DNA from: Bdellovibrionales bacterium
GTDB taxonomy: Bacteria > Pseudomonadota > Alphaproteobacteria > UBA9219
Direction: 5' to 3'
Assembly (NCBI GenBank): GCA_050180745.1
Contig: JBFXDW010000003.1
Location: 1-36,065, forward strand
Length of the DNA stretch: 36,065 nt
Shown one piece after another: positions 1,034 through 28,797 of the stretch (positions are counted from its first letter, which is position 1; the number at the start of each line of letters is the position of its first letter). The position numbers were made by a program, and so were the translations under genes. A model generated the notes under the pieces. That model searched no databases. It was not told where the DNA came from and saw only the letters and a list, made by a program, of their open reading frames with translations.

Positions 1034-1054
1034 AAGCGACCGTTTCTGTCACCT
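1034..1054. promoter_or_regulatory. Putative WYL-regulator box 1 (AAGCGAC-N7-GTCACCT)
   Basis: GACCGTTTCTGTCACCT matches box 2 at 14/17 positions. A minus-strand TAAAAT (1016-1011) lies 17 nt beyond it, upstream of the 41-aa ORF. Confidence 0.5.
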
Positions 1055-2575: not shown

Positions 2576-2780
2576 TCGGCTCCACAGCTTCAAAACCGGA
2601 CGATGGGCGTCAATACGGCTCCTTCAGGCGCTTTTTGCACAGAAAAAAGCAAAAAACGAGCAGCGAACCTTGACGTTTCTGCGACAAATTCCTCAAATGG
2701 GTTAATATCTTATGACGAACGAATCATTTATTGGCGCATCCGAAGATTTAAGGAGCGCGAAAGGAACCCAAGGTCAAGAA

Positions 2781-4682
2781 ATGGCGAAAAGTCTCTTAGA
2801 ACAACTCCCCACCATTGTCGCGGAAGGAAAGCGAGAAGCCGAACGCATTATGGAGCGCTTGGAAAGTGCCCAGCGCATCGGCCTTCAGACCCGCGAACTT
2901 GTTATCCCGTCGCGGGACACGAATTGGCAAAACATGTTTGCGCGGGCGGAGAAGGCTTCGCATGACCTTGATCCCGCAAATATGAACCGCCTCATTTACG
3001 GCGACAATCTTCTGGCGATGGCCGCGCTCTTGGCGGGGAATGATGAAACGCCATCCATGCGCGGCAAGGTTGACCTGATCTATATCGACCCGCCATACGA
3101 CAGTAAGGCGGATTACCGAACGAAGATAAATCTTCCTGGCGATGAAATTGAACAGAAGCCAACTGCGATTGAGCAGTTTGCGTATTCTGATACATGGAAG
3201 GATGGTACATTCAGTTATTTGCAGATGATTGTGCCGCGGCTAGTGCTCATGCGAGAGCTTTTGAGTGATACTGGGTCCATCTGGGTCCATCTGGATTGGC
3301 ATGTTTCACACTACGTGAAGATTGTTCTAGATGAAGTGTTCGGGCGAGAATTATTTAGGAACGATATTACATGGCACTATGCGAATTCTGGACTAAAGGC
3401 GCGGTCTAGGAAATTTCATCAAGTTACTGATAATCTCTATTGGTACACAAAATCTTCTGAATTTACCTTTAATCATTTATTCAAGGAAAGAAAGGATGGC
3501 CAATCCAAGCAGGCGAAGCGTAAGTTCAATCCTATAACCAAGAAAGCCGATATGGTTAGGGATGAGCAGGGAAATATAGTGTATGAAATCAGAGACGAAG
3601 TTTTAGAAAACTCTCTTTGGGAAACTGGTAGTATGAGTAATAGCCCAGAACGGATAGGATATTCAACGCAAAAACCAGAAGCACTCTTACAGAAAATAAT
3701 CCAATCAACATCTAACGAAGGGTATCTAGTTCTGGATGCCTTCGCGGGTTCTGGCACAACAGCGGCAGTCGCTGAAAGACTTAGTCGTCGCTGGATTGCA
3801 ACCGATCTTGGAAAGCCCGCTTGCATGGTTACACGCAAGCGACTGATCGATCAGGACGCTAAGCCTTTCCTTTATCAGCATGTAGGCGACTATCAAGTTG
3901 AAATGGCCCGCAGCACAATGGGGCGCAAATTCCGCGTTGGTGATCTTTCTGAAATTGTCCTTCGCCTCTTTGGTACTTTGCTGCTTCCCATTGAAGAGAA
4001 CCCAAACCGCAATATGGGGCGGGTTCCGCACACCAAAATGCTGGTTCTTGCCGATAGCCCGAACAAGCTCACGGGTCTTGCAACGCTTAAACGCGCCATC
4101 GAAATCCGCGATAATCTGATGGGCGGCTGGGATAAGGTCATCATTCTGGGCTGGAACTTTGACTCCAACATTGGACAGGACATCCAAGCTCTTAATCAGG
4201 GCGACAAACTCGAAGTTTTGGTTATCCCTCCCGACTTGCTCGACCGCCTAAAGAAAAAAGGCGACAAGTTGAAGACGGAAGAAGTCCGTTTCTCCTCGCT
4301 TCAATACGTAAAAATCAAACCCATTGAGCGCACGAAGGCCGGAAGCAAAGAAACCTTGACGGTTGAGCTTGATAATTACGTTCTCCTTTCTCCCGACGCC
4401 CTTAGCCTCGATGAGGCAAACAAAAAGAAGTTGCAAAGCATTATCAACAAGGAGCCGATGGCACTTATCGAGTATTGGAGCGTCGATCCCGACTATGACG
4501 GCCATGTGTTCCGCTCGGTCTGGCAGGATTATCGCGGAAACACTGAAAACGATGACGATCCGTTCCGCGTCGTTACTACAGCCCAATTAACAGACCTTCC
4601 AGCCAAAGACGGCAAACGTCGCGTTTGTGTGCGCGTCGTTGACGTTTTCGGCTTTGAAGCTGAAGCCATTACGGAGGTCTGA
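2781..4682 (+). CDS. mod: Type III restriction-modification methyltransferase (Mod, beta-class amino-MTase); alternative start at 2712
   Basis: Motif IV IYIDPPY precedes motif I DAFAGSGTT. LIYGDNL and YSTQKPEALL motifs present. Lies upstream of a Res helicase-nuclease. Confidence 0.92.
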   Translation: MAKSLLEQLPTIVAEGKREAERIMERLESAQRIGLQTRELVIPSRDTNWQNMFARAEKASHDLDPANMNRLIYGDNLLAMAALLAGNDETPSMRGKVDLIYIDPPYDSKADYRTKINLPGDEIEQKPTAIEQFAYSDTWKDGTFSYLQMIVPRLVLMRELLSDTGSIWVHLDWHVSHYVKIVLDEVFGRELFRNDITWHYANSGLKARSRKFHQVTDNLYWYTKSSEFTFNHLFKERKDGQSKQAKRKFNPITKKADMVRDEQGNIVYEIRDEVLENSLWETGSMSNSPERIGYSTQKPEALLQKIIQSTSNEGYLVLDAFAGSGTTAAVAERLSRRWIATDLGKPACMVTRKRLIDQDAKPFLYQHVGDYQVEMARSTMGRKFRVGDLSEIVLRLFGTLLLPIEENPNRNMGRVPHTKMLVLADSPNKLTGLATLKRAIEIRDNLMGGWDKVIILGWNFDSNIGQDIQALNQGDKLEVLVIPPDLLDRLKKKGDKLKTEEVRFSSLQYVKIKPIERTKAGSKETLTVELDNYVLLSPDALSLDEANKKKLQSIINKEPMALIEYWSVDPDYDGHVFRSVWQDYRGNTENDDDPFRVVTTAQLTDLPAKDGKRRVCVRVVDVFGFEAEAITEV

Positions 4683-4684
4683 TT

Positions 4685-5617
4685 ATGACGCGAAGTAAAA
4701 CCCGCTACACAGTACCAGATACGGAAGGAGAAACAATTACTCCCAGTCGCCTCAAACAACTTGGTAAGGATCGCCAGATTGAGATTATGCGGCAATGGTT
4801 TTTTGAAAATTATGAAGACCCTGTTAATCGAACTCCTTATGAGAGTGCAGAGGGAGGATATATCTATATCTACGGGGGACCTTTCGAGGCACAAGAGGAA
4901 CTCGGTGGAGAATTTGGCGGGCTTGTCAAAGATGAGTTCATTGATGAACTCGCAGACGAACTAAATGATATTAGTTGGGAATGGACTCACACAGAACGGC
5001 CTAGCGATTATGATGATTTCTATGCGGTCGAAGCAACGCTTGATCCAGATATACCTGAAGATGCGCTACAAATCAGGATTGAAAAAATACGCGAGCTATT
5101 GGAACAAAAGGAACTGATCGATTCTAACCTCCACACCTTCCTGTTAATGATGATCTACAGCTTCAGCATCACTACGCTCGAATGCTTTTTATCTGATACC
5201 TTTATACGTGCGATAGATGCCAGCGATGTTCTGAAAAAGAAATATGTGACCGAGGGAAAATTGAAAATACCTTTGGCAAAACTTATCAGCATGAAAGATG
5301 TGAAAGAAGCTGAGGAAGCTGTCAATTTGCAGATCAGAGCAACACATCTAAGGACATCATATCATGATTTAGAAACGGCAAGCAGATTATATAAAAAAGT
5401 TCTTAATGTGGAGTTATCTGAAATTTCTTCAACAGATAAATTGCGTGACTATGTACGCAAACGACATGATTTTGTTCATAGAGGCGGGAAAGATGAACAA
5501 GGTAATGAAGTGACAACAAGCAAAGAAGAAGTCAAAGAACTTCTCGATGAGATTGAAAAGTTTTGTCTAGAGATCAAAGGCAAACTTAATCCGCCATTCT
5601 CGGATGATTTTTTCTAA
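4685..5617 (+). CDS. HEPN-domain putative RNase with an acidic N-terminal domain
   Basis: R-x4-H motif RHDFVH followed by RGGK (5462-5479). Upstream helix ITTLECFLSD. N-terminal WF..NYEDP..PYES.EGGY segment. AT-richer than the flanking genes. Confidence 0.75.
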   Translation: MTRSKTRYTVPDTEGETITPSRLKQLGKDRQIEIMRQWFFENYEDPVNRTPYESAEGGYIYIYGGPFEAQEELGGEFGGLVKDEFIDELADELNDISWEWTHTERPSDYDDFYAVEATLDPDIPEDALQIRIEKIRELLEQKELIDSNLHTFLLMMIYSFSITTLECFLSDTFIRAIDASDVLKKKYVTEGKLKIPLAKLISMKDVKEAEEAVNLQIRATHLRTSYHDLETASRLYKKVLNVELSEISSTDKLRDYVRKRHDFVHRGGKDEQGNEVTTSKEEVKELLDEIEKFCLEIKGKLNPPFSDDFF

Positions 5618-5628
5618 CGGAGCATGGC

Positions 5629-8562
5629 ATGAATGGAATAAATGACCTTACCCTCGCTCGTCGTCTAACATGCCGTGTGGCAGAGGCCTGCACTGGCCTT
5701 GAAAACGGCGATGCGCCGATCCTCTCTCAAGTTAGCGATGCCACCGCCGAACTTTTGAAATGGTGGTTCCAACAGGATTTTATGGATACGCGCTCTTACA
5801 ATTTCCATGAAGGGCAACGCGCCGCGATTTTGAACATTATCTACGCCCATGAAGTCCTGAAAACGGCTTCACTTAAGGGACTTTATGAGAACGTCGCGCC
5901 AGAAGTTCTCGTGGCCAGCGCCCAAGCGGTGGAACTTATCGGCGCGGATAAAAACGACTGCCCCAAATACTGCCTCAAGATGGCGACGGGTACGGGCAAG
6001 ACGTGGGTTTTGCAAGCCCTTATGGTTTGGCAGATTCTCAATGCCAACCGAGATCCCAGCAATTCCCGTTATACAAAGAATTTCTTGGTCGTTGCCCCTG
6101 GTCTTATCGTGTATGACCGTCTGCGCGACGCATTCGAGGGTAAAGAACGCGACGGAAAGCGTGATTTTGCAACGTCTGACCTTTCGATTTTTCAGGATCT
6201 ATTCATCCCAGCCGCGCACCGCGACGAAGTTTTTCGCTTTGTTCAGGGAGCCGTGTGCCCCAAGGAAGAAATTGGACGTAAGGTTACGTCGGGCGGCATT
6301 ATCGCCATAAGCAACTGGCACGTTCTAAGCGAAGAAGGCGAGGATGACGGCCAGCAAGAAATGGTTTTCGCCCCTGGTACGCGTCCCGATGCAAAGGACG
6401 TTATTAAAGACCTGCTTCCCTTAACGCCAGGAACGTCGCAGGGAAATGACCTCAACGTCCTTAACAGGCGTTTTCAGCGCGGCGGGATCCTGAACTATTT
6501 GTGTGAGCTGCCGAGCTTGATGGTGTTCAATGACGAAGCACACCATATCCACGAGTTTAAGCGCGAAGGCGAAGTTTCCGAGGTGGAGTGGCAGAAGAGC
6601 CTTTCCTTGATTGCTGAACCCAAAGCGGATCGTTTCGTTCAGGTGGACTTCTCAGCCACGCCTTACAACGAGGTTGGTACGGGCAAAAAGGCCAAGAAGT
6701 CGTTCTTTCCGCATATTGTCGTGGATTTCGACCTTAAAACGGCCATGCGCCTTGGCCTTGTAAAGTCGCTCGTCCTCGATAAACGAAGCGAAATTGGTGC
6801 GCTTTCCGATGAGCAATTGGAGTTCAAGGCTTACCGTGACGAAAACGGAAACCCGCAACTAGCCGAAGGCCAGCGCATTATGCTTCGCGCAGGCCTGACC
6901 AAGCTTCGCAAACTTGAAGAGGATTTTGCCAAGCTTGATCCCGACCGCCATCCCAAAATGCTTGTCGTTTGCGAAGACACGTCTGTCACGCCCCTCATTG
7001 AGGACTTTTTGCGTCTCGAAGGGCTGGGGCATGACGAGATTTTGCGCGTTGACTCCAACCGCAAAGGCGAACTCAAAATGGATGAATGGAAGGTTCTGCG
7101 TGAGCGCCTGTTCGATGTTGACCGCCACGCGCACCCGCGAGTCATTATAAGCGTTTTGATGCTCCGTGAAGGTTTCGATGTGAACAACATTTGCGTCATT
7201 GTTCCCCTTCGCGCCTCGGCTGCTGGCATTTTGCTGGAACAAACGATTGGACGTGGCCTGCGCCTCATGTGGCGCGGCGCGGATTTTGACGACATTAAGC
7301 ACGAAAACCGCAAGCTGATCTGCGAAGGTAAAACGCCGGAAAGTATGATCGACATTCTTTCAATCGTTGAGCATCCGGCTTTCATCGAGTTCTATGAAGA
7401 GTTGATTAAAGAGGGTCTTGTTGGCGAAACTGAAGACGACGACAATACCGGAGGCTCTTCTACAGGTGACTTGGTTGCTGTTGGGTTGCGCTCGAACTAT
7501 CAAGACTATGATTTTGCCATTCCGTTTATCCTTCGAGAGAGAGAAGAGGAAGTGCAAACGCGGGAGATTGCCGTTTCTTCCCTTGAACCTTTTACGACCT
7601 TTTCAGTTGATAGGCTGAAGGCAATGATCGGAACCGGAGAGAAGTTCCACTCTGAAGACGTTCAGGACAAAACTCGTTTTGGCGACTATCGCGTGAATGG
7701 CGGCGTGATGACGGCGACAGGGTACAATGATTACCTTGGGCGTATCGTTCGCCGCATCACAGAGGCTCTAAGCCAACCGCTTACCGATAGCTCCACCAAG
7801 TACAAGAAAGGCACCGAGTTTCCGCACATCCAGATCAACCGCGCCTATCTTGCGGAAGGGATTGACGAGTACATACGGACGCGGCTTTTTGAAAAGCCGT
7901 TCGATCCTTTTGAGAATGAAAACTGGCGCATCTTGCTTGTCGATCCTGTGACAGAACACATCATGAAGATTTGGGCGCGTCAGCTATTGGCGGCAGAGGA
8001 AACGGCTGTTACGGCGGATGCCGAAGTGACGCACCGCCTGCTTTCGGAAGTTCCCAAGCTTACCATGCGCGAAAGCTCGTCTCTCGCGGTTAGCAAAAGC
8101 ATCTATTTGCGTCTGCCTTATCCTTCCCGCAGCGGCGGACTAGAGCGGGCCTTTATCGAAACAGCAGATCGGGACGGCTCCGTCGATGGTTTCTGCAAGC
8201 TCAATGAGCAAAAGCACACCTTCACAAGACTGCGCTATATCAAGGAAGATGGGCTTCCGGCCTTCTATTACCCCGATTTTCTGGTTCGAAGCGGTGACAA
8301 GATTTATCTCGTCGAGACAAAGGCACAAGGACAAGTTAATACGCCAAACGTGAAGCGCAAGAAACGCGCCGCCGTCTCATGGTGCGATAGGCTCAACAGC
8401 CTCGCGCCGGAGCAGCGCGGCAATGCCGAATGGCACTATGTTTTGCTTGGCGAAGGCGTTTTCTATGAATGGCGAGACAAAGGCGCGTCCATTAAGGACA
8501 TGCTGGAATATGCAAAGCTAAGGCCTGTTGACGAAAGGGTTCAATCGGCGTTTGCTTTTTAG
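5629..8562 (+). CDS. res: Type III restriction endonuclease Res subunit (SF2 helicase plus PD-(D/E)xK nuclease)
   Basis: MATGTGKT (motif I), DEAHH (II), SATP (III), LREGFD (V), QTIGRGLR (VI), and C-terminal YYPDFLV...LVETK. Confidence 0.93.
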   Translation: MNGINDLTLARRLTCRVAEACTGLENGDAPILSQVSDATAELLKWWFQQDFMDTRSYNFHEGQRAAILNIIYAHEVLKTASLKGLYENVAPEVLVASAQAVELIGADKNDCPKYCLKMATGTGKTWVLQALMVWQILNANRDPSNSRYTKNFLVVAPGLIVYDRLRDAFEGKERDGKRDFATSDLSIFQDLFIPAAHRDEVFRFVQGAVCPKEEIGRKVTSGGIIAISNWHVLSEEGEDDGQQEMVFAPGTRPDAKDVIKDLLPLTPGTSQGNDLNVLNRRFQRGGILNYLCELPSLMVFNDEAHHIHEFKREGEVSEVEWQKSLSLIAEPKADRFVQVDFSATPYNEVGTGKKAKKSFFPHIVVDFDLKTAMRLGLVKSLVLDKRSEIGALSDEQLEFKAYRDENGNPQLAEGQRIMLRAGLTKLRKLEEDFAKLDPDRHPKMLVVCEDTSVTPLIEDFLRLEGLGHDEILRVDSNRKGELKMDEWKVLRERLFDVDRHAHPRVIISVLMLREGFDVNNICVIVPLRASAAGILLEQTIGRGLRLMWRGADFDDIKHENRKLICEGKTPESMIDILSIVEHPAFIEFYEELIKEGLVGETEDDDNTGGSSTGDLVAVGLRSNYQDYDFAIPFILREREEEVQTREIAVSSLEPFTTFSVDRLKAMIGTGEKFHSEDVQDKTRFGDYRVNGGVMTATGYNDYLGRIVRRITEALSQPLTDSSTKYKKGTEFPHIQINRAYLAEGIDEYIRTRLFEKPFDPFENENWRILLVDPVTEHIMKIWARQLLAAEETAVTADAEVTHRLLSEVPKLTMRESSSLAVSKSIYLRLPYPSRSGGLERAFIETADRDGSVDGFCKLNEQKHTFTRLRYIKEDGLPAFYYPDFLVRSGDKIYLVETKAQGQVNTPNVKRKKRAAVSWCDRLNSLAPEQRGNAEWHYVLLGEGVFYEWRDKGASIKDMLEYAKLRPVDERVQSAFAF

Positions 8563-8630
8563 ATTAACTTTTGAGCGGCAAAGGGTTATCCCTTCGACTA
8601 TAGTTGCTCATCTTTAGAATAAGGAGCCGC

Positions 8631-10052
8631 ATGGAAAACCTTCCCAAATACAAGCTGCTTTCTTCTGAGACAGCAGGAGGAAAACCTAATCTTCTCGACG
8701 GAAAAACAGCGGAGGAAGGCCTGCGACGGATACAGGCACTTCTGGCAGATTGGCTGCGCATGGAGAATGTTGTTGTTTTAACTGCCGCTGGCTGCTCTTT
8801 TGCGTGTGGCGGAAGACTGATGGCTGGACCAAAAGATAATAATCTGGAGTGTGTTGTTCTTAACGCCGTTGAAGCCGCGCAATTGGATGAAAACGCCAAA
8901 GCCGTTATTCAGCACAGAAAATCAACATGGCCAGAAGATGATGCTTATGGCCCCTTTGGATTTGAGGAGTGGCTAAGTTATGTGTTTAACGCGCCAAGTC
9001 TGTCCCAACCTGCATCTTCTCCCATTAAGTCTGTTATTTGGAAAACGATTAAAGACCAGGAGGAAAAGGGTCTAGCTCTCGATGATAAGGATTTAACAAG
9101 TTTGCGTAGCCTTATTGAAAAAGCAATCTATGCAGAATGTTCCTTACAAATTGATCGCACAGAACTTTCATCAGATCACGAACAAAAAACGTCGGGTCAT
9201 ATTCCTTTTTTAGCAAAACTCATCGCACGAGATGCAAACCTTGGCAGGACGCATTTGTTCACCCTTAATTATGACACCCTATTCGAACAAGCGATGGAAG
9301 AGCTTGGGATACAGTATTTTGATGGTTTTTCAGGAAAGGCTTGCTCTCGCTTCGATCCGTCGGTCTATGGCTTGGACATTTATTATCCTGGAGACGTTGC
9401 TGAAGGGCGGGTTCGTCGTTTTGATAAATTCTTGCAGTTCTACAAACTACATGGGTCTCTTCATTGGTCTTTTGATGAAAAAAACATATGTCGCGCAAAA
9501 CACCAAGATTTTGATTTTGTAAAAGACTATAAAGAACAGACCAATGAGAAAAAGGCGGAACGGCTTATATCGAAAGAATTTGGAGCTATTACCTCTTATG
9601 GGATACTCCCAACCTCACAGAAGTTTTCGCAAACGCTCGAAATGCCGTATGCTCATCTATTTCGCTTATTTCACGCAAGATTAAACCAACCGCAAACATT
9701 TCTGCTCGTCCTTGGTTATGGTTTTGGAGACGAGCATGTCACGCGAATTATTGAAACAGCCCTCATGAATCCATCTCTCGTAATGCTGGTTGTCGAACCA
9801 AACCCCAACAGCCTTGTCGTTAAAAAGATACTGAATTACCAGAAGCTAGGACAAAGGGCTTTCGTTTTGACATCAAGCGATGAAAGTTGGAAAAAGAACC
9901 CCTACCAATATGCAACCTTTTCTGACTTTGCCCAAAACATTATGCCCGACATTAAATGGCTTGAAGATTTCAAACGCCTTCGTTCTTTTGAAGAGCAAAT
10001 TGGTAATGCGCAGAAAGATGGAGCGCCATCAGCCATGTTAAGCGAGGGATGA
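8631..10052 (+). CDS. sir2: SIR2-family NADase (Sir2 of a Sir2-HerA defence pair)
   Basis: AAGGAG RBS before ATG 8631. Motifs VVLTAAGCS, FTLNYD, KLHGS and LGYGFGDEH. ATGA overlap with HerA. Confidence 0.9.
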   Translation: MENLPKYKLLSSETAGGKPNLLDGKTAEEGLRRIQALLADWLRMENVVVLTAAGCSFACGGRLMAGPKDNNLECVVLNAVEAAQLDENAKAVIQHRKSTWPEDDAYGPFGFEEWLSYVFNAPSLSQPASSPIKSVIWKTIKDQEEKGLALDDKDLTSLRSLIEKAIYAECSLQIDRTELSSDHEQKTSGHIPFLAKLIARDANLGRTHLFTLNYDTLFEQAMEELGIQYFDGFSGKACSRFDPSVYGLDIYYPGDVAEGRVRRFDKFLQFYKLHGSLHWSFDEKNICRAKHQDFDFVKDYKEQTNEKKAERLISKEFGAITSYGILPTSQKFSQTLEMPYAHLFRLFHARLNQPQTFLLVLGYGFGDEHVTRIIETALMNPSLVMLVVEPNPNSLVVKKILNYQKLGQRAFVLTSSDESWKKNPYQYATFSDFAQNIMPDIKWLEDFKRLRSFEEQIGNAQKDGAPSAMLSEG

Positions 10053-12196
10053 TGGAACAAACCCGTGTCATAGGCCATGTTGTTGCTATATATGGTTTCA
10101 GATTAAAAGTAGAGCTTTCCCCTGATGCAAAGTCTTCGTCAAGGGCAACCCCAGATGGGGTTCAACGCGCTGTTGCTATAAACTCCTTTTTAACATTTGA
10201 TCTTGGTGCGGGAACTTATGCGATAGGAATGTTAAGTGACTTGGAAGCGCGTGAAAGCTACGACCCAACACAAGACAAAGAATTATCGTTAGAACTGACA
10301 AAACCGCGACGCATTGCTTCCGTTCAACTTTTAGGAACAGTTAAGCAAGATGGAAAAAGGGAATGGAAATTTGATACTGGCATTACGGTGCTGCCAACAC
10401 TTGATACGCCTGCAGAGGTTGCCTCTCCAGACATTCTCTCCGGTATTTTTGCCTGCCCCCCAAAACGAAACAGGCCCCATTCCAGCACAACAGACGATTA
10501 TGATTTCCCGCTAGACTTAGGTCATCAAACGGGAAATGAGGACGTTATAATCAAAGCATCTTTTAATGACTTATTCTCTCGCCCTCTTGCTGTTGTAGGG
10601 AACACGGGGTCTGGTAAATCTTATACAGTCGCAAGCTTGTTACGTGGCATTATCGAGCTTGAACGGTTTTCCACGATTTCAGATGCAGAACCACACGTCT
10701 TTATCCTCGACATTAACGGCGAATACGCAAACGCCTTTTTAGATAAAGGCAGATCGTCCTATACACGCGAGCCAAACAAAATATATTTGAATGGAGAGGA
10801 ATTTTGTGTTCCTGCGTGGTTGATGAATGGTGAAGAAGTTTGCGAGTGGTTACAAGCTTCTGAAGCTACACAAGAGCCAGTATTGAAAGACTGGTGGGCG
10901 ATTGCAAAATCAAAACAGATGGGTATCGGATCATATGATCCATTACAAATTGCTATTCAGAAAATAGACGGGGCAATTGGTTGGTTGGACAAAAATAGCC
11001 CCAAGAGTGCTTTCAAGCTCGCGCTAGATCATGCCAAACAATATGCGCCTGACGAAGACTGGGACAGTCTCACGGCCCTTCCAAAGTGGTCAGATGATAC
11101 TTCAACAAAAAAGGATGACTGGGCAAAAATCACCAATGACAAGGAAGTTCGCGATTCTCTCGGAAAATTTCGTGGGAATCTGTTGGAAAAAATATCTATA
11201 AGACAACAGGATGGCATTAACTTTGCGAGAACCGCCGATTCTCCTCGGTTTGTTGCCTTAAATGATTTTCGTGACCCAAATCTTGTCGATAGATCAACAG
11301 ACATAGATGGAAGTAAAAAAATAGATCAGTATCTTCTAACATTAAAACTTCGTCTTCGCACAAGGCTTGATGATCGACGCTGGCAGTCATTCTTTAGCTA
11401 TGAACAGCAAAACGTTCACACGTTTGAAAATTGGATAGAGAAAATGGGGATCGGCCAGAAGAACGGCTGGCGAATCTCTATTTTGGATCTTTCAATGCTA
11501 GCCTCCGAAGTTTTACCCTTCGTCTGCGCTTTGATTGGTAGGCTCCTTTTGGAGACGAGGGAAATGTTGCGGCCAGATGTTCGTAGCAAATATCCCTGGG
11601 TGCTCGTTTTAGAAGAGGCCCACAATTACGCAAGGCCATCGGCACTTGCAGAAGACCGTGGGCAAACCCTTTCCCGTAGAGCTTTTGAGCGCATCGCTAA
11701 AGAGGGACGCAAGTTTGGTCTCTCTCTCATTGTCGCTAGCCAACGCCCAAGTGAGATTAGTCCGACGATTGTAAGTCAATGTGCAAACTTTTTTGCCCAT
11801 CGGTTGCAAAATCCAGATGATATAGAACATTTCCGCCGCATTATCCCGAAACAGGCACAAAGGCTGCTCGATCAAATAACAGTTTTAGCGGCAGGCGAAT
11901 CCATTGTCTTCGGAAGTGCTGTGCATATTCCAACACGTGTTCAGATTAGGATTCCATCCCAAGAACCGTGGAGCGCAACAGCAGCGCCATATGTTGATTG
12001 GGCAAAGACAGACCAGTTCCCAATAAAAGACGTTATTACAGACTGGGGGCTTGTGGAGGAAAAAGTCGTTGAGAAAGATTTTTCTGCGGGAGATAGTCAG
12101 CTAGAAGAAGAAACCACTACGGCTCCTGCTGCACAAGGAAGCAGCTATCCCTCACAAAATGGTTCCAATGATCTTGATGACGAGATACCGTTCTAA
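10049..12196 (+). CDS. herA: HerA/FtsK-family ATPase with N-terminal HAS barrel and SSB-like C-terminal tail
   Basis: Walker A GNTGSGKS, Walker B VLVLEEAH, IAKEGRKFG and ASQRPSE. Ends ...NGSNDLDDEIPF. Confidence 0.92.
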   Translation: MMEQTRVIGHVVAIYGFRLKVELSPDAKSSSRATPDGVQRAVAINSFLTFDLGAGTYAIGMLSDLEARESYDPTQDKELSLELTKPRRIASVQLLGTVKQDGKREWKFDTGITVLPTLDTPAEVASPDILSGIFACPPKRNRPHSSTTDDYDFPLDLGHQTGNEDVIIKASFNDLFSRPLAVVGNTGSGKSYTVASLLRGIIELERFSTISDAEPHVFILDINGEYANAFLDKGRSSYTREPNKIYLNGEEFCVPAWLMNGEEVCEWLQASEATQEPVLKDWWAIAKSKQMGIGSYDPLQIAIQKIDGAIGWLDKNSPKSAFKLALDHAKQYAPDEDWDSLTALPKWSDDTSTKKDDWAKITNDKEVRDSLGKFRGNLLEKISIRQQDGINFARTADSPRFVALNDFRDPNLVDRSTDIDGSKKIDQYLLTLKLRLRTRLDDRRWQSFFSYEQQNVHTFENWIEKMGIGQKNGWRISILDLSMLASEVLPFVCALIGRLLLETREMLRPDVRSKYPWVLVLEEAHNYARPSALAEDRGQTLSRRAFERIAKEGRKFGLSLIVASQRPSEISPTIVSQCANFFAHRLQNPDDIEHFRRIIPKQAQRLLDQITVLAAGESIVFGSAVHIPTRVQIRIPSQEPWSATAAPYVDWAKTDQFPIKDVITDWGLVEEKVVEKDFSAGDSQLEEETTTAPAAQGSSYPSQNGSNDLDDEIPF

Positions 12197-23596: not shown

Positions 23597-26125
23597 CTAC
23601 ATATTCCTCTTCGCTCGATTAAGGCTCTTTGTCGCCTTGGCCATGATCTGCCCTTGACTGGCGCGGAAGCTATCGGCGTTTGGCGTGGTTACGTTCATGA
23701 CGAGACTGACCCCCGAAGAGCGGCGAGACCGATCTTTCTTTGAAATCACTTCCTCACCACGTTGCAGGATGACGGGAACTTCGTCCGATTTCAGGCCAGC
23801 GATCCCGCCGCTATGGTAACGGGGCGCACCTGCGAAAACATGCGCGGGGACAGCTCGCCTTAGTGTAGGATCGCCAACCGTGCCACCGTCGTGGAAAAAG
23901 GAACTGATAATGCTTCCCAGAAAGCCGCCATCGCTGCTGCCGTTTCCTGTCAGGCTATTGAATAAGGGCGTTGTGATGGATTGCTTGACGAGCATCCGCG
24001 TAATATCGGCTACCACCGAGCTTGCCAGATCATTGAGGCTGTTCAGACTAATCTCGCCCGATGTGACCATCTTCACTATCGCGTCTTCTGTCGCGGTCAT
24101 GGCCTCCGTGAACGCATTCTCTATGGTCGTTGCCGTGTCGGTCGCGCTGTCCTTGTAATTCTGAAAAGCGCGAACGATACCTGCCGCAGGATCAGTGCGT
24201 GAGTCGAGCAAGTCTTTGTCTGCCCCCGCCAGCGCATGGTTATAGGTTCCTTGGCTGATGGCCCCAGCGTCTAATAATTGATTAAGGCGCTCAATCTTTT
24301 CGGCATAAAGCTCGGTTGCTGTTTTTGCTTCATCGGTGAGGCTTTTGCCTTCTTCCCGTAGCCTGTCCAGTTGCTCTTGCGCGGTCTTTTGATCGAAATA
24401 CGCTCCAGCAAGATCACGAACCTGTGCGATAAGCGCGGGTGCTGCCGTTTTGGGCAGGGCATCGACGGCTTCCTTAATCGAAAGCTGCCGCGCTGTTAGC
24501 CCTAGCTCTTTCAATTTATCGTTCAGGCCATCGACAATTTTTTGCGCTTCAAGAAAAGCTTTCTCATCGAAAAGCTGTCCGGCAAGCTTTGCCGTTTGTT
24601 CGCGCTGTGCTCCCGTCGCTTTGTCAGAAAGCCGCGCCACCGCTTCTTCAATGAAAATATTCCGCTCGTCGGTGAGGCCGATAAGCTTTTGCTTAAGATC
24701 ATCGACAATCTTTTGATTGGCAGAGGATTCTTTTTGTGCGGCCTCCGAAAGCGGGGTCTCAATATCAGAGATTTTAAACCCGATGGCTTTGCGGGCTGTT
24801 TCGATGGCTGTGTCAATTTGCGCGCTGTTTTCATCCGTGCGAAATCCGTTCAAAAACGTCTCGGTTTGCTTCAATTCGTCATTGAGCTTTTTGACTTGAT
24901 AGGCAGGGTCTTTTTCAAGAAACTTTTCGATCGTTTCCGCATAAGGCTGGGCGCGTTTGTCGATGAGATCATGGACACGCTCTTCTTCAGCCGCATTCTT
25001 GCCTGCTTCCGCCTTTTTCTTTTCTTCCTTCTCGGCTTCAATGGCCTTTTGCAAGGATTCGATTTGCTTTTTAAGTTCGTCCGCCCGCTCTTCATGATTG
25101 GCGACGTTGCCGCGCACTTGAAGCATGGTCGGAATGTCGCGAATGCGAACCAATTCCTTTTCAATCTCGGCCAGTTCCTTCTTTGCCTCACTTAACTGCC
25201 TGTCAAGCGGCACTTTGGAAATAACCTCGGTCGTGGTTCTGAAAGTTGAGGCCAGCCTGTTGAGGATTGCTTCCGCTGTACCGCCGACGGCTTCAGTTTT
25301 GCCGATGGTTTTCAGCATGTCGTCCCACGCCACCGATAAACGGTGCGTTGCCCCCGTCAGGCCTTGCGTTTCGGCGCGTCCCGCTCCACCGACTTGCTGG
25401 GCAAGAGCATCAAGGATAAGGCGCTGCGCTTCGGCATGTTTTCCAGTTTCAACAAGTATGGCGATGACTTCTTTTTGCGAATCCGTAAAGCTCACGCCAA
25501 CGCGCCGCAAAGCTGTAATGCCCTGAATGGGGTCTTCCAGCGCCTTGCCAAGCTGCGTTGCCGAGGAGCGAAGATCCTGCCCGAACACAGCGGACATATC
25601 TTGGGCAAGGTGAATGCTGCGTTTAAACGTGTCGCCTGCCACAGAGCGGAAGGTCGCCATGATCGCCGCCGCCCCTTCGACCGCTTCCGAGCTGGTCAGA
25701 GTTGACCTTTCCATGCCCTCGGCCATTTCGACGATTTCTTGTTTCGTTAGACCGGAGGCGTATCCCGTGGCTTTCAAAACGCCTTGCAAGCGGTTTTGTG
25801 CTTGTTCTTCTGCCATCGTTGCGGAAAGAGCGGCCTTGAGGCCAAGTGTCATTGCAGCCAATGCCGCCGCCGCTGCGAGACCTGCGGGGCCAATGGCCGC
25901 AAGGCCAGAACCCAGCGGCCCGATTTGTCCCGCCAGTCCTGTTGCTGCGCCTTTAACGTCATTGGCGGCAGCACCCAGAGCCTTCAGCGCACTTGAAGCG
26001 GGTTTGCCGGATTGGACAATCTCATTCAGAGATTTCTTGCCCGTTTTCCCAAACTCTATGAGTTCAGCTTTGGCCTTGCCGCCCTCCATCACAGAAAGGC
26101 GGATGGCAATGTTGTGTTGAGTCAT
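23597..26125 (-). CDS. Tail tape measure protein
   Basis: Ala-rich helical protein. QLGKALEDP..G.TALRRVGVSF, a lambda-H-like C-terminal region, and APRYHSGG...DEVPVILQRGE. GAGGAG RBS. Confidence 0.95.
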   Translation of the reverse strand: MTQHNIAIRLSVMEGGKAKAELIEFGKTGKKSLNEIVQSGKPASSALKALGAAANDVKGAATGLAGQIGPLGSGLAAIGPAGLAAAAALAAMTLGLKAALSATMAEEQAQNRLQGVLKATGYASGLTKQEIVEMAEGMERSTLTSSEAVEGAAAIMATFRSVAGDTFKRSIHLAQDMSAVFGQDLRSSATQLGKALEDPIQGITALRRVGVSFTDSQKEVIAILVETGKHAEAQRLILDALAQQVGGAGRAETQGLTGATHRLSVAWDDMLKTIGKTEAVGGTAEAILNRLASTFRTTTEVISKVPLDRQLSEAKKELAEIEKELVRIRDIPTMLQVRGNVANHEERADELKKQIESLQKAIEAEKEEKKKAEAGKNAAEEERVHDLIDKRAQPYAETIEKFLEKDPAYQVKKLNDELKQTETFLNGFRTDENSAQIDTAIETARKAIGFKISDIETPLSEAAQKESSANQKIVDDLKQKLIGLTDERNIFIEEAVARLSDKATGAQREQTAKLAGQLFDEKAFLEAQKIVDGLNDKLKELGLTARQLSIKEAVDALPKTAAPALIAQVRDLAGAYFDQKTAQEQLDRLREEGKSLTDEAKTATELYAEKIERLNQLLDAGAISQGTYNHALAGADKDLLDSRTDPAAGIVRAFQNYKDSATDTATTIENAFTEAMTATEDAIVKMVTSGEISLNSLNDLASSVVADITRMLVKQSITTPLFNSLTGNGSSDGGFLGSIISSFFHDGGTVGDPTLRRAVPAHVFAGAPRYHSGGIAGLKSDEVPVILQRGEEVISKKDRSRRSSGVSLVMNVTTPNADSFRASQGQIMAKATKSLNRAKRNM

Positions 26126-26220
26126 CAATTTTCTCCTCGTCTAAATAATATAGAAATATCAAATTATTTGGCATATTATGCTGTTATCAAAATACAACAG
26201 CTTTTTATTATTGGATCAGC

Positions 26221-27168
26221 ATGAAAATCTTCTCTCGCCGATATAAAACACCAATTGAATCTGGGCAGTTGATGGTCGAACTGTCTGCTCGTTTGCGGGG
26301 CAGAGTGTGGAAGGAAATGCAGGAAATAAACGAAACTATAAGAAAGACGACAGACGGAGGGTGGAACTATGATTCCTCTGTTCTTGATGAGGCAGAACAC
26401 ACGATCAAGAGACTTTATGGTGTTGATGAGTTTGATGTTTGGTTGAAATCCAGTGTCCAAGGAACTTCTTCTGAATTAAAGGATCTTGTTTGTAGCGGAT
26501 GTTATCATTACCAGATTTTGGATGTAATCGAAATATGCTTCGGAGAATTGTGGGACTCTAAGAGATACACTTTTCAGCATGCGGTCAACTTAGCAATGGA
26601 AGATGAGAGATGTCCGTGGAGACTGTCCGATGGGTACTTTTTCAAAGTTGACTCTGAATTTTTAGAACAACACATCTTTTCCACTGCCCATTTGATGTTA
26701 GGAGATGACGGTTTTAAAGGGGCGTTGGAGGAGTTCGATGATGCTAGAGCTGATCTGACAGCGGGCGATCACAAGGACGCCATTCTGAAAGCATGCAAGA
26801 GCCTAGAAAGCGTTATGAAGGTTATCCTCACCGCACGAGGAAAAGACTTTTCTCCGACTGCAGCTGCAAAAGTATTATTGAACAATCTATCTGAAAGCGG
26901 TTTTTTTGGTGATATTCCAATTGAAGGGAGGAATGTCATTACAGGACAGGTTGTGCTGTGCTTACCTTCTTTACGTAATAAATTAGCCGGACACGGTCAA
27001 GGAGGGATTGTTGTAAATATTCCTCAATCATATGCCTCGTTATCAATAAAACTTGCTGCAGTTCTTAATACCTTTCTGATTGAACATCATCAAGAAACCC
27101 AAGAAATTGGGTCTCCCGACACGACTGAAGATAATGCACTCGATCAAGACGATGATATTCCTTTCTAG
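26221..27168 (+). CDS. AbiJ/Abi_C-like HEPN abortive-infection protein with SSB-like C-terminal tail; moron
   Basis: N-terminal FSRRY...LRGRVW, DAILKACKSLESVMK helix, R-x5-H motif RNKLAGH (26974-26994). AT-rich, antisense, ends ...DQDDDIPF. Confidence 0.8.
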   Translation: MKIFSRRYKTPIESGQLMVELSARLRGRVWKEMQEINETIRKTTDGGWNYDSSVLDEAEHTIKRLYGVDEFDVWLKSSVQGTSSELKDLVCSGCYHYQILDVIEICFGELWDSKRYTFQHAVNLAMEDERCPWRLSDGYFFKVDSEFLEQHIFSTAHLMLGDDGFKGALEEFDDARADLTAGDHKDAILKACKSLESVMKVILTARGKDFSPTAAAKVLLNNLSESGFFGDIPIEGRNVITGQVVLCLPSLRNKLAGHGQGGIVVNIPQSYASLSIKLAAVLNTFLIEHHQETQEIGSPDTTEDNALDQDDDIPF

Positions 27169-27521
27169 TTTTGCAAGTGAGAAGCTTTTTCATTGATCGC
27201 GGTGACAAGGCCGGATTCACAGGATGGCAAAAGCTCGGCCAGCGCGTGAAGGTCATAGCCCAAGGCTTCGCCAACCTTGAGCGCGGCTTCCATATCAACG
27301 CCTGCAATGCCGAAGCCCGCCGTGCGAAGCTGGCCGGAGCAACGCAGAATGACATCCCACGCTTGCCAGCCTTCCATTGTTTGGGGTTCGCTCTCGCAGT
27401 AGGGACAGCGTTTGCCCTCATGATTGGCTTTGCCTTTGCTGCATGGCAGATCAGCGTCCGCACATGCGCCACAATAAGAAGGCCCGCCGCCAAAATGCCA
27501 TTTAGCGCGAGCCTCTAACCG
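27165..27521 (-). CDS. Tail assembly chaperone, frameshifted (gpT-like) portion of a gpGT fusion
   Basis: The -1 frame from the slippery site reads RLEARAKWHFGGGPSYCGACADADLPC...RCPYCESEPQTMEGWQAWD... with no stop until 27165. Confidence 0.8.
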   Translation of the reverse strand, partial: RLEARAKWHFGGGPSYCGACADADLPCSKGKANHEGKRCPYCESEPQTMEGWQAWDVILRCSGQLRTAGFGIAGVDMEAALKVGEALGYDLHALAELLPSCESGLVTAINEKASHLQN

Positions 27522-27856
27522 TTTTTTTCCTGTTCCAGAAGCAGGGTCGGGCTTAGATAAAGCCGCTCAAAAGCATCCGCCATCGGCCACAAATCCATAA
27601 GAGCTTCCACGCCCGCGTCTGTTACGTTAGCAGGCTTGTCCTTATCATCGGCAACGCCTTCCCATTCCGTGATGGCAAGCGTGGCCAGCTTCTTAATAAG
27701 CGCTGCGCTTCGTCCGCCAGCGTCTTCCGTATCAGCTTTAAGCGCAGACACACGCGCCGCCATGACAAGGGCAGTCGAGGCGGGATGCACCTTGACGCGC
27801 ACCCCATAGCCAAGATCAAGCCAATAATCTTCACGTTTGAGATCGAGTTTGATCAT
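27515..27856 (-). CDS. Tail assembly chaperone (gpG-like)
   Basis: Between the tail tube and tape measure genes. ITEWEGV motif; ends EQEKNG over A AAA AAC. Confidence 0.85.
   Translation of the reverse strand: MIKLDLKREDYWLDLGYGVRVKVHPASTALVMAARVSALKADTEDAGGRSAALIKKLATLAITEWEGVADDKDKPANVTDAGVEALMDLWPMADAFERLYLSPTLLLEQEKNG
27521..27527 (-). other. -1 programmed ribosomal frameshift slippery site A_AAA_AAC
   Basis: GAA AAA AAC GGT TAG at the end of gpG. The -1 frame joins the 27165-27377 ORF. Confidence 0.8.
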
Positions 27857-28797
27857 GCGTAGCTCTCCACATCGTTTGTCAGGATTACAGTCAGCATTTG
27901 ACCTGCTGCGGTGTTTTTGGCGGCTTGCCAGTTGAAAGAAGCCTGAATGCCTCCAGCCCCATCAATCGGAAGCTTGGGCTTGGGCAGATAAACCTCGTGC
28001 GCGGTAAAGATCAGCGAACGTTCGGCATCAATCGTGTAACCGAATGACAAAGCTACCGCCGTGTTGTCGGTTGCCGCATCCAGAAGCATTGTGTCCGCAA
28101 AGCGCACATCAATTGTTCCCGTAAACGCGGCCACCGTCGGGTCGGCCCCGTCGATCTTTCCGTCGTCACGAATGGTTTCGATCTTTTCGAGGTTGTTTGT
28201 GTAGGTGAATTGTGCGCCTGTGACGTTGCCAAGCTGTATGCCATCCTTTTTAACGCTCCCCTGAAACTGATTGAAGCGGGTGATGACAAGCTCGGTCGGC
28301 GTTCCGCCCAGAGTGGCGGCAGCGCGATCCTCGCCTTGAGCAATACAGCTCATCGTCGCCTTTGCTCCACCGGAACGCTCAAAAGAAACCTGCATCGAAT
28401 TGGCGCGAACGCCGCTATTCATAAAATAGCTTGAGGCCTCCGGTGTTCCGACTTCCAGCGATAAGCTAGGCAAAACGGTTGCGCCGGATTTGAAGGTGTG
28501 AACGTATGGCGCTTCAATCCCTGTCGTGACAGGCGCACCCAGCAAGGCGCGAAGCCAATAGCCGATATAACGAAGATCGACGGGCACAACCACGTCGCCT
28601 TCGACGTTGATAACATCGCGCATAGGCTGTGCGGGATCGCGACCTTGCCCCAGAAGATCGGACTCGATAAGTCCTTGCTCTGAACCAAGTTGCGATGAAA
28701 TAAAGGGAAACTTGATAAAATAGCCCGATGGCGCAGTGCCATAAACGCTTTCAAATTGCCCCAATAGCTGCGCGTTCGCGCCATAGGCTCGTGACAT
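27853..28797 (-). CDS. Major tail tube protein
   Basis: MSRAYGANAQL, LLGQGRDP, LPSLSLEVG.PE and VYLPKPK..I.GAGGIQASFNWQAA. GGAGG RBS and expected position. Confidence 0.9.
   Translation of the reverse strand: MSRAYGANAQLLGQFESVYGTAPSGYFIKFPFISSQLGSEQGLIESDLLGQGRDPAQPMRDVINVEGDVVVPVDLRYIGYWLRALLGAPVTTGIEAPYVHTFKSGATVLPSLSLEVGTPEASSYFMNSGVRANSMQVSFERSGGAKATMSCIAQGEDRAAATLGGTPTELVITRFNQFQGSVKKDGIQLGNVTGAQFTYTNNLEKIETIRDDGKIDGADPTVAAFTGTIDVRFADTMLLDAATDNTAVALSFGYTIDAERSLIFTAHEVYLPKPKLPIDGAGGIQASFNWQAAKNTAAGQMLTVILTNDVESYA

Follow-up and report, generated by a model that had tools for sequence, protein, structure and literature searches.

Why should a protein built like an abortive-infection ribonuclease (RNase) end in the same six residues as SSB, the protein of Escherichia coli that binds single-stranded DNA? 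The question is raised by an AbiJ-like HEPN gene of a Bdellovibrionales bacterium, found in a stretch of DNA (the window) that is an entire contig of 36,065 bases (C3) from an assembly of 1.79 Mb in 145 contigs, 89.9% complete. Its product ends in DDDIPF, which the available text of PMC5872125 gives as the C-terminal hexapeptide of E. coli SSB (SSB-Ct). The SSB tip on this clade of AbiJ-like HEPN proteins is a conserved feature for which no earlier description was found: in the literature covered, with subscription journals and supplements outside that coverage, SSB tips are described for SSBs, phage SSB-like triggers of defence, prophage DUF669 proteins (PMC13687109) and DdrB, and none was found described on a HEPN, AbiJ, PIN or HerA defence protein. 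The tail probably plugs a putative defence RNase into the DNA-replication and repair hub of the cell. The reading that we favour, with a probability of roughly 0.45, is that the gene product works on its own as a HEPN abortive-infection RNase, a dimer with two free mimics of the SSB tip that engage the readers of the host SSB tip. The gene and the parts of its product are as follows.

26221..27168, + strand: AbiJ-like HEPN gene, 315 amino acids plus stop, protein ending in ...NALDQDDDIPF*
26227..26676, + strand: AbiJ_NTD4 domain, alpha/beta, residues 3-152 (PF18863, 39.1 bits, cut-off 34)
26701..27084, + strand: HEPN domain of the DUF7014 / Abi_C type, residues 161-288 (PF22809, 42.8 bits, cut-off 27)
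26974..26994, + strand: catalytic HEPN motif R252-N-K-L-A-G-H258 (R-x5-H)
27091..27147, + strand: disordered acidic linker QETQEIGSPDTTEDNALDQ, residues 291-309 (19 residues)
27148..27165, + strand: SSB-Ct-like tip DDDIPF, residues 310-315, followed by the stop codon at 27166-27168

The initial annotation, made from the letters of the DNA, had described an AbiJ-like HEPN protein with the motif RNKLAGH, an acidic linker and the exact hexapeptide of E. coli SSB, and each element of this description stands. The motif occupies residues 252-258, the linker contains six acidic and no basic residues, and the last 18 residues of the protein (from 298) appear as coil in an AlphaFold2 (AF2) model, with a predicted local distance difference test score (pLDDT) of 57-59. 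No match to the Pfam SSB family (PF00436) was found in the protein at E-values up to 0.1, and its model consists of an alpha/beta NTD4 and a helical HEPN domain and not of the oligonucleotide-binding (OB) fold of SSB; its C-terminus is of the SSB type, with an acidic [ILV]-P-F tip following a disordered linker.

This tip is shared by most of the family. Among 120 relatives, found in 5.8 billion proteins, 106 end in PF, 104 in [IVL]PF, 94 in [DE][DE][IVL]PF and 53 in DDDIPF exactly. Of the 104 proteins with an [ILV]PF end, 94 are full-length; in these, 12-39 residues (median 19) separate the tip from the last HEPN helix, and proline makes up 21.5% of the linker versus 3.1% of the body. Mean pairwise identity reaches 0.78 in the six residues of the tip, falls to 0.12 in the twelve residues preceding it and is 0.47 in the last HEPN helix; across the clade, purifying selection acts on the tip and not on the linker. 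An origin of the tip by chance or from amino acid composition is ruled out by two counts. Ends of the form [DE][DE][IVLF]PF occur in 3 of the 10,252 stop-to-stop frames of at least 60 residues in the 1.79-Mb assembly, and the back-translated tip followed by a stop codon gives 145 matches in 151 genomes of the class, compared with none for the backward pattern. Several copies of the gene in named genomes (L023, from Nitratireductor soli, and L010, L020 and L024) are truncated or out of frame near the 3' end and look like decaying genes; in L023 the letters DIPF stand seven residues ahead of the stop.

The history of the tip was followed on a FastTree tree of 174 out of 200 sequences (proteins of at least 285 residues, and open reading frames (ORFs) of 285-345 residues with a stop codon at the loci), from which all columns past residue 288 of the window protein had been removed. 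A single branch with support 100 separates 51 rows without the tip from 123 rows, 111 of them with it. The tip label changes 12 times on the tree versus 51.9 times in shuffles (0 of 500 shuffles as low), and the 12 tip-less members of the tip-bearing clade are scattered singletons. In a tree whose root is not fixed, and whose support values are weaker than bootstrap, this fits a single origin of the tip within the AbiJ-like family followed by sporadic loss. The 51 sister proteins stop straight after the last HEPN helix, and two of them (P0115 and P0120) carry both Pfam domains, indicating that the tail was added onto a pre-existing architecture.

A scan of one genome per species gave 80 loci. 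Full-length tip-bearing relatives belong to Alphaproteobacteria, Acidobacteriota, Verrucomicrobiota, Omnitrophota, a Halanaerobium and a Baekduia; some 55 other AbiJ-type proteins in the species scan, which are more distant, stop directly after the last HEPN helix. The family is found mostly outside phages (one weak match in 50,697 phage records and one distant match in IMG/VR), so the location of the window gene in a phage tail module is untypical of it. Plasmids account for 335 records. Almost all are STM4504/CBY_0614 proteins, distant and without the tip, that are carried by enterobacterial plasmids, and their tails were not read individually. A conserved partner gene or operon was also sought and not found: of the Pfam families in 65 ORFs that neighbour the gene at 16 loci (2-5 chosen per locus, from 153 ORFs), none is seen more than twice; some of the neighbours are defence and mobile genes.

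If the tail copies the SSB of the host, it should resemble the SSB of its own genome more than that of others, and it does. The comparison covers 18 of the 21 genomes that have tip-bearing or near-full-length copies, two having no SSB match and one an SSB cut by the contig end. AbiJ-like tails are closer to the SSB tail of their own genome than to those of the other genomes, whether the last 8, 10 or 12 residues are compared (p 1e-4 to 2e-4, 18 pairs, 20,000 shuffles), and p is about 0.0025 when close kin are removed (11 pairs). Leaving out the unpublished genome G012 changes p to 1e-4 to 3e-4 for the 17 pairs that remain and to 0.0025-0.004 for 10 pairs without close kin, and positions -7 to -12 alone, which lie outside the generic hexapeptide, give 0.0038 and 0.047. 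Pairs of tails from the same host show how far the likeness goes:

Halanaerobium: AbiJ-like ...EEDFDVPF, SSB ...ADDFDVPF
Verrucomicrobiae: AbiJ-like ...LADEPDDIPF, SSB ...LDAEPDDIPF
Mesorhizobium: AbiJ-like ...RELTDEIPF, SSB ...RELDDEIPF
Baekduia: AbiJ-like ...ADDDIPF, SSB ...ADDDIPF
An acidobacterium: AbiJ-like ISDDDIPF, SSB ITDDDIPF

The copies from Verrucomicrobiae and the acidobacteria form one subclade (support 99), yet their tails differ as those of their hosts do. A recombination event that recently captured the 3' end of ssb was considered as a source of this likeness and rejected: in genomes of intermediate guanine-plus-cytosine (GC) content, about half of the identical residues have different synonymous codons, the AbiJ-like gene and ssb sharing the codon at 4 of 8, 4 of 9 and 5 of 8 identical tail residues; two genomes with 7 of 9 and 7 of 7 shared codons have extreme codon bias. 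The likeness is one of protein only, that is, convergence.

Two side observations concern SSBs in the genomes of this survey. In genome G121 (L292 and L293) a protein of 197 residues, with no match in Pfam or PADLOC, shares with the SSB an identical C-terminal tail of 15 residues, PPGMPMDDFDDEIPF, and may be a divergent SSB paralogue or the bearer of a recent tail copy. The alphaproteobacterial genome G001 (which holds L002) has 24 SSB-domain matches, mostly paralogues that are short, lack a tip and begin with MNRATLLGHAGR; mobile elements presumably carry them.

What does the tail hang from? The HEPN domain is recognised by PF22809 (DUF7014) at an E-value of 6e-11, PF14355 (Abi_C) is present in the precomputed annotation of the protein and of most of the 120 relatives, and the PHROG match is phrog_20794 (2.5e-21). 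The sole PADLOC match is the candidate system PDC-S32 (4.1e-9, in a search with a maximum E-value of 1), and the PADLOC AbiJ model (PDLC02347) is not matched by the window protein even at that maximum. The NCBIfam family STM4504/CBY_0614 gives 81.1 bits, below its curated cut-off of 150, so the window protein is a relative of this subfamily and not a member. In two alignments drawn from the 120 relatives, H258-G-Q-G is invariant in A1 (69 sequences), and A2 (31 sequences) shows no variation at R252, N253, L255, H258, G259, Q260 and G261.

The AF2 model, built from the 69-sequence alignment, has a mean pLDDT of 91.9 and is confident through residue 297; the NTD4 domain has about 95 in the full model and 86.7 when folded alone. 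With VIA-align, residues 161-292 match 1ufb_A (Z 13.2, root-mean-square deviation (rmsd) 2.7 over 119 residues), 2hsb_A (Z 12.8), 3o10_A (Z 12.5) and the HEPN domain of lactococcal AbiA (Z 9.3). Foldseek gives its HEPN matches a probability of 1.0 and template modelling (TM) scores of 0.58-0.69 depending on the target, but with E-values of at least 0.11, and finds nothing for the whole model at E-values up to 0.001. The protein has both the fold of the HEPN superfamily and its R-x4-6-H motif, and the two Pfam domains together with the fold at Z 13.2 bear out the identity first proposed. A solved fold relative for the N-terminal domain was sought and no convincing one was found, the best VIA-align match (Z 5.2) being in a range that is common for the tool.

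The protein is predicted to form a homodimer by ESMFold2, with a score of 0.64 (runs of 0.64, 0.67 and 0.60) compared with 0.00 for the best of three controls, the mark for such scores being reached by 20 of 30 proteins whose solved structures are pairs of one chain and by 1 of 23 with single-chain structures; because HEPN dimers are already among the solved structures, this pass may stem from likeness to them and is not proof. The runs agree in at least 66% of the contacts, with a partner pLDDT of at least 77. The predicted interface is symmetric and made of residues 231-292, including motif residues 250-255 and leaving the tail out.

The tip is not confined to this protein. The initial annotation had reported the same tip on the HerA of the window and had taken its recurrence on two different effectors as a sign of a portable sensor or recruitment module for defence proteins. 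The window genome has three frames that end in [DE][DE][IVLF]PF, namely those of the AbiJ-like protein, of HerA and of a DUF6511 protein. The last two, and the SIR2 partner of HerA, are located as follows.

8604..10052: SIR2 of a SIR2-HerA pair (PADLOC SIR2 PDLC04085 at 3.3e-208)
10049..12196, + strand: HerA of the pair (PADLOC HerA PDLC04106 at 2.9e-298, residues 2-668)
Contig C1, 30504..31076 (L001 6505-7077, - strand): DUF6511 protein ending in FIDDEIPF (Pfam 1.4e-22, model matched to the very end)

HerA has a tail of 47 residues past the PADLOC model, ending in NDLDDEIPF with the tip at 12176-12193. The tip is therefore of the same kind, as had been claimed, although literally it is DDEIPF, one residue off the DDDIPF of the AbiJ-like protein. 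In everything else the two proteins are as dissimilar as first stated, BLASTP aligning their tails alone (8 of 19 identities, E 0.21). Among 120 relatives of HerA, 75 end in PF, 66 in [DE][DE][IVL]PF and 45 without PF, and the tips follow a variable linker past the conserved end of the fold. The recurrence on two effectors is thus real, but it is no local coincidence of the window, each family being ancestrally tip-bearing according to the tree.

A census of the class, with DD[DE]IPF plus a stop codon as its only pattern (tips in LPF or VPF fall outside it), found one match in 105 of the 151 genomes, two in 14 and three in 4, the window genome being one of these four even though its SSB is missing. 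In all 25 single-match genomes that could be checked the match is the SSB. The other 17 genomes with several matches have 37 between them, 24 of which are SSB paralogues and 13 non-SSB proteins, among which are:

HerA in another genome of the class, 72% identical to the window HerA
Abi_C protein that also matches the PADLOC AbiJ model, 23% identical to the window protein
PIN_12/PIN_8 protein with a match to PDC-S34, a candidate system
DUF736 protein
Seven proteins that match nothing, and an unscanned ORF of 24 residues

The second of these represents, with only 23% identity to the window protein, a second tip-bearing AbiJ lineage; the tip-bearing protein L291 matches the PADLOC AbiJ model at 2.4e-8. 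At least four unrelated defence architectures, among the proteins examined, bear the tip. That the tip is portable is therefore upheld by the AbiJ-like and HerA clades, the second AbiJ lineage and the PIN/PDC-S34 protein, and by its tracking of the host SSB tail.

That it is a module of defence proteins specifically is contradicted by its other bearers. At least 80 viral contigs contain the tip, with 22 ORFs matching an SSB model and 58 non-SSB ORFs, some of which are probably divergent phage SSBs, as the hidden Markov model was made from only 13 bacterial SSBs. A Pfam scan of 54 of the 58 (three shorter than 50 residues and one duplicate of L147 were dropped) gave no HEPN or other defence domain among the matches listed, which comprise three Helicase_C proteins (two of them superfamily 2 (SF2) helicases of about 570 residues), two Pam3_Gp34-like proteins, two with CbbQ_C and one with DUF669; about 40 had no match. 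The two SF2 helicases (L135 2213-3946 and L184 4839-6524, 562-578 residues) combine ResIII/DEAD, Helicase_C and a UPF0547 zinc ribbon and end in DDDIPF, and a phage AAA_5/CbbQ_C ATPase (L193) ends in DDEIPF, so the host SSB tip is found on replication enzymes of phages besides SSB as well. The DUF6511 gene of the window genome likewise belongs to a replication module, that of a second prophage, where its neighbours are a phrog_2300 protein and a Sak4-like annealing protein to one side and a PD-(D/E)XK nuclease, an SF1 helicase and a Toprim primase to the other; its product may lend an SSB tip to a phage partner that binds single-stranded DNA (ssDNA) and has no tip. Proteins that act at ssDNA use the tip widely as a module, and defence effectors are one set of its users.

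How would such a tail serve a HEPN RNase? The initial annotation had the tip gating a putative RNase, and this, like its role as a sensor, is conjecture. The protein is laid out as a sensor-like AbiJ_NTD4 domain, a HEPN domain predicted to form a symmetric dimer with the R-x5-H motif at its interface, a disordered linker and a copy of the SSB tip. A peptide that is free in the models, more conserved than the core of the enzyme and tuned to the host SSB is most simply explained as a ligand of proteins that read SSB tails, and the dimer would present two such mimics, able to dock in the pockets that read the host SSB tip. Within this wider reading we propose, tentatively and as the likeliest function although at well below even odds, that the tails are bait for phage annealing and replication proteins. 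Phage proteins that need the host SSB tip, above all the single-strand annealing proteins RecT, Red-beta, Erf and Sak, would seize the tails, and this seizure would cluster or release the RNase and lead to RNA cleavage and abortive infection. The proposal draws on two facts, that phage annealing proteins read the SSB tail and that escapers of lactococcal AbiJ map to annealing proteins. In the accessible portions of 10.1101/2020.04.14.041095 and PMC13490951, RecT and Red-beta are described as recognising the last seven residues of the host SSB, with one residue able to switch the compatibility between SSB and annealing protein; PMC6393309, where accessible, has Red-beta binding the SSB tip, and the accessible text of PMC12184496 maps nine of nine escape mutants of lactococcal AbiJ to phage annealing proteins of the Sak/Erf type. 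Defence systems that respond to phage SSBs include type III Sir2-HerA (PMC13434337), and the HEPN transfer RNA-cleaving enzyme DARNA is activated by ssDNA that a phage SSB presents (10.64898/2026.02.22.705581).

Several points weigh against this reading. At position -3, no more than 9 of the 15 pairs with a tip have the residue of the host SSB; in five alphaproteobacterial genomes the AbiJ-like protein ends in LPF and the SSB in IPF, and in one genome they end in IPF and VPF, respectively. Kin are not independent of each other, so the p-values from shuffles overstate the evidence, and the tails of 11 other tip-bearing proteins from one class, in which SSB tips are nearly uniform, are no closer to their own SSB (p 0.13-0.51). 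The SSB of the window genome itself was not found in its 89.9%-complete assembly, and the local tip has to be taken from 12 relatives, whose SSBs mostly end in [DE]LDD[DE]IPF; the tail of the window HerA, NDLDDEIPF, agrees with this across eight residues, the LDQDDDIPF of the AbiJ-like protein agreeing less closely. The lactococcal AbiJ whose escapers map to annealing proteins is only a distant relative, which may or may not have a tip, and the PADLOC AbiJ model does not match the window protein. The tip can be lost, as it has been in 12 of the 123 clade members. Binding by the tail, RNase activity and a defence phenotype are all properties that we infer from the sequence. Finally, host tracking does not discriminate between bait and the next two explanations, and fits bait and the first of them equally well.

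The alternative that survives best, although we consider it unlikely, is that the tip binds the host partners of SSB (ExoI, RecQ, PriA, RecO, chi and others) and that sensing is the task of NTD4. The RNase dimer would then ride on the genome-maintenance hub and be concentrated at SSB-coated ssDNA during phage replication. The conservation of the tip, its tracking of the host and the free tail support such a tether as much as bait, and tracking is to be expected because the host partners of SSB co-evolve with the host tip; NTD4, a separate and conserved domain, is a candidate sensor. There is also a parallel in DRT10, whose defence is described in the available text of 10.64898/2026.04.29.721553 as modulated by host SbcB (ExoI) together with a phage SSB-like protein bearing FDDDIPF. 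The LPF tails in hosts with IPF weigh against this explanation too, a constitutive competitor for the partners of SSB might be costly to the cell, and a tether alone gives no account of what keeps the RNase inactive.

It is distinctly less probable that the acidic, Phe-ended tail sits in the ssDNA groove of an OB fold, that of the host or a phage SSB, and that the RNase is freed when SSB loads onto phage ssDNA or is triggered directly by phage SSBs. The affinity of the SSB tip for OB folds is weak, which weighs against this explanation. In its favour, the tip of E. coli SSB binds its own OB domain (as far as the accessible part of PMC3936761 goes), phage SSBs trigger type III Sir2-HerA (PMC13434337), SSB-presented ssDNA activates DARNA (10.64898/2026.02.22.705581) and the HerA of SIR2-HerA has the same kind of tip. 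DARNA, however, differs in architecture and reads ssDNA by a folded domain and not by a tail, and the terms 'C-terminal tail', 'C-terminus' and 'IPF' occur 0 times in the paper that classifies Sir2-HerA systems (PMC13434337).

Autoinhibition within the protein is more improbable still. Here the acidic tail would lie on a basic surface of NTD4 or HEPN until ssDNA or a competitor displaced it, in the way that the acidic tails of SSB and T7 gp2.5 act according to the available parts of PMC3936761 and PMC10359462; the tail does leave from the last HEPN helix, which lies at the predicted dimer interface beside the active-site motif. It is, however, undocked in the AF2 monomer (pLDDT 57-59) and absent from the predicted dimer interface, an internal ligand has no reason to track the SSB tail of the host, and the tip-less sister clade manages without it while having the same two domains. 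The weakest explanation, which we regard as very improbable, is that the likeness to SSB has no functional meaning and the C-terminus is a degron, a sorting signal or a neutral remnant: the loss of the tip from 12 of 123 clade members agrees with it, but it is opposed by a tip identity of 0.78 that exceeds the 0.47 of the HEPN helix beside a linker at 0.12, by the copying of lineage-specific SSB variants (DFDVPF, EPDDIPF and RELxDEIPF) and by the 0 matches of the reversed pattern in 151 genomes.

The left third of the window is a defence island, and the remainder is a prophage-like cluster of lysis, tail and head genes on the - strand. Besides the SIR2-HerA pair and the AbiJ-like gene, the features that concern us here are the following.

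1053..2042, - strand: WYL/WCX regulator, defence island
2712..4682: type III methyltransferase (Mod), defence island
4685..5617, + strand: AT-rich RiboL-PSP HEPN gene (GC 0.40), defence island
5629..8562: type III restriction subunit (Res), defence island
23597..26128, - strand: tape measure protein gene, 843 amino acids (Pfam Tape_meas_lam_C 9.2e-18, TMP_2 5.6e-11)
26129..26220, + strand: AT-rich intergenic region of 92 nucleotides 5' of the AbiJ-like gene
27515..27856, - strand: tail assembly chaperone G (phrog_313)
27165..27856, - strand: frameshift product GT, its T part with DUF7697 (stop at 27165)
27853..28797: tail tube gene, adjoining the chaperone gene

The initial annotation had placed the gene as an AT-rich antisense moron between the tail chaperone and the tape measure gene, and the composition and order of the genes agree with it. 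The GC content of the gene is 0.42, compared with 0.54-0.57 in the flanking tail genes of the - strand, and in windows of 500 nucleotides it is 0.41-0.43 within the gene versus 0.51-0.60 around it. The ORF is antisense to the tail genes and lies between the frameshifted G/GT chaperone and the tape measure gene, so that foreign composition, an orientation of its own and a place between conserved adjacent phage genes, three marks of a moron, are present. A slippery heptamer, A_AAA_AAC, is found at 27521..27527, where G ends in ...GAA AAA AAC GGT TAG, and the -1 frame of the chaperone is open for 120 codons past it, up to the stop at 27165, and contains DUF7697. The chaperone is a G/GT pair made by programmed -1 frameshifting, and the place of DUF7697 suggests that this domain is the 'T' part of GT chaperones. 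As the -1 frame reaches 27165, GT and the tape measure gene enclose the AbiJ-like gene exactly, with a tail-to-tail overlap of 4 nucleotides between it and GT.

Two sigma-70-like sites, which are matches to the consensus only, lie upstream of the AbiJ-like gene on the + strand (26151-26179 and 26184-26211); the region 25900-27600 has five promoter-like sites versus 2.0 +/- 1.4 in shuffles, and the same scan found no terminator-like site around the gene. A further AT-rich antisense ORF (20838-21686, + strand, GC 0.41, 282 residues) lies in the tail module between an NlpC/P60-like gene and a tail gene of 280 residues, and it may be another moron. It has no match in Pfam, PADLOC, PHROG or NCBIfam; its nearest structures in the ESM Atlas are unnamed clusters and one cluster mostly with ScoMcrA_N, and more distant ones are CN_hydrolase folds (TM 0.56-0.61). 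In the defence island, the product of 4685-5617 on the + strand, whose gene is located between Mod and Res, combines RiboL-PSP HEPN with the HEPN/RES N-terminal domain 1 and ends in ...PPFSDDFF, that is, without an SSB tip.

How single-gene abortive-infection RNases sense infection is largely obscure, and many defence systems have recently been linked to phage SSBs and single-strand annealing proteins without a handle that they share; a host-matched SSB peptide offers a common molecular one. Mimicry of the host SSB tip could even be a general, so far unrecognised input module of immune effectors that guard the SSB hub, although we hold this generalisation to be doubtful. If it were true, effectors would carry on a linker a decoy of the peptide that phages must grasp, and hijacking by the phage would itself switch the effector on; the module would span the HEPN RNases of two AbiJ lineages, the PIN/PDC-S34 protein and the HerA of SIR2-HerA. 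A decoy must keep pace with the SSB tip of its host, so the tails would follow the host after horizontal transfer, which would account for their change after transfer between phyla. It would also give a rule for the search of defence genes, namely a protein without an OB fold that ends in the SSB tip of its host. The question has the size of a peptide (six to nine residues) and the known partners of the tip are routinely purified; because the window tip is identical to that of E. coli, standard panels of E. coli phages and mutants in SSB partners can be used.

Among known systems, the AbiJ / Abi_C HEPN proteins are the closest in body, being single genes with an N-terminal AbiJ-type domain and a C-terminal HEPN domain with R-x4-6-H, although the proline-rich linker and the SSB tip mark the clade of the window protein alone. 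The C-terminus of bacterial SSBs is the closest in tail, with its variable proline-rich or acidic disordered linker and a near-invariant D-D-[DE]-[IV]-P-F end; unlike SSB, the window protein has no OB fold, an RNase-type body, a shorter linker (12-39 residues) and a predicted dimer in place of a tetramer. We know of no SSB-like tail in HepS, the HEPN protein of the Gifsy-1 prophage. As a prophage-encoded HEPN abortive-infection effector it is otherwise comparable (PDB 9oik; Z 8.4, rmsd 3.0, 123 residues), and the title of that entry has it bound to a phage tail-tip protein.

SIR2-HerA (Nezha) shares the tail, the HerA of the window and 66 of 120 relatives having the same type of linker and tip, but it is an ATPase plus NADase unrelated to the AbiJ-like protein in fold and effector. 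DARNA (PD-T7-3) shares the mode of action that we would expect, being one HEPN protein that acts as an abortive-infection RNase and whose activation depends on the state of SSB and ssDNA during infection; it has an N-terminal HEPN domain, a folded Pds5-like ssDNA-binding domain and dodecamers, with no SSB-like tail described (10.64898/2026.02.22.705581), whereas the window protein has a C-terminal HEPN domain, with a mimic peptide as its link to SSB. Phage SSB-like proteins (DUF669; Bas52_0087) are also proteins of mobile elements that end in DDDIPF or DDIPF, and in the accessible parts of PMC13687109, 10.64898/2026.04.29.721553 and 10.64898/2026.10.27.754916 they are thought to reach the host partners of SSB by this means. 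Such proteins trigger DRT10 and DRT4, as stated in the available text of the last two sources (10.64898/2026.04.29.721553; 10.64898/2026.10.27.754916). They serve the replication of the phage and are sensed by defence, whereas in the window the tip stands on the defence effector itself.

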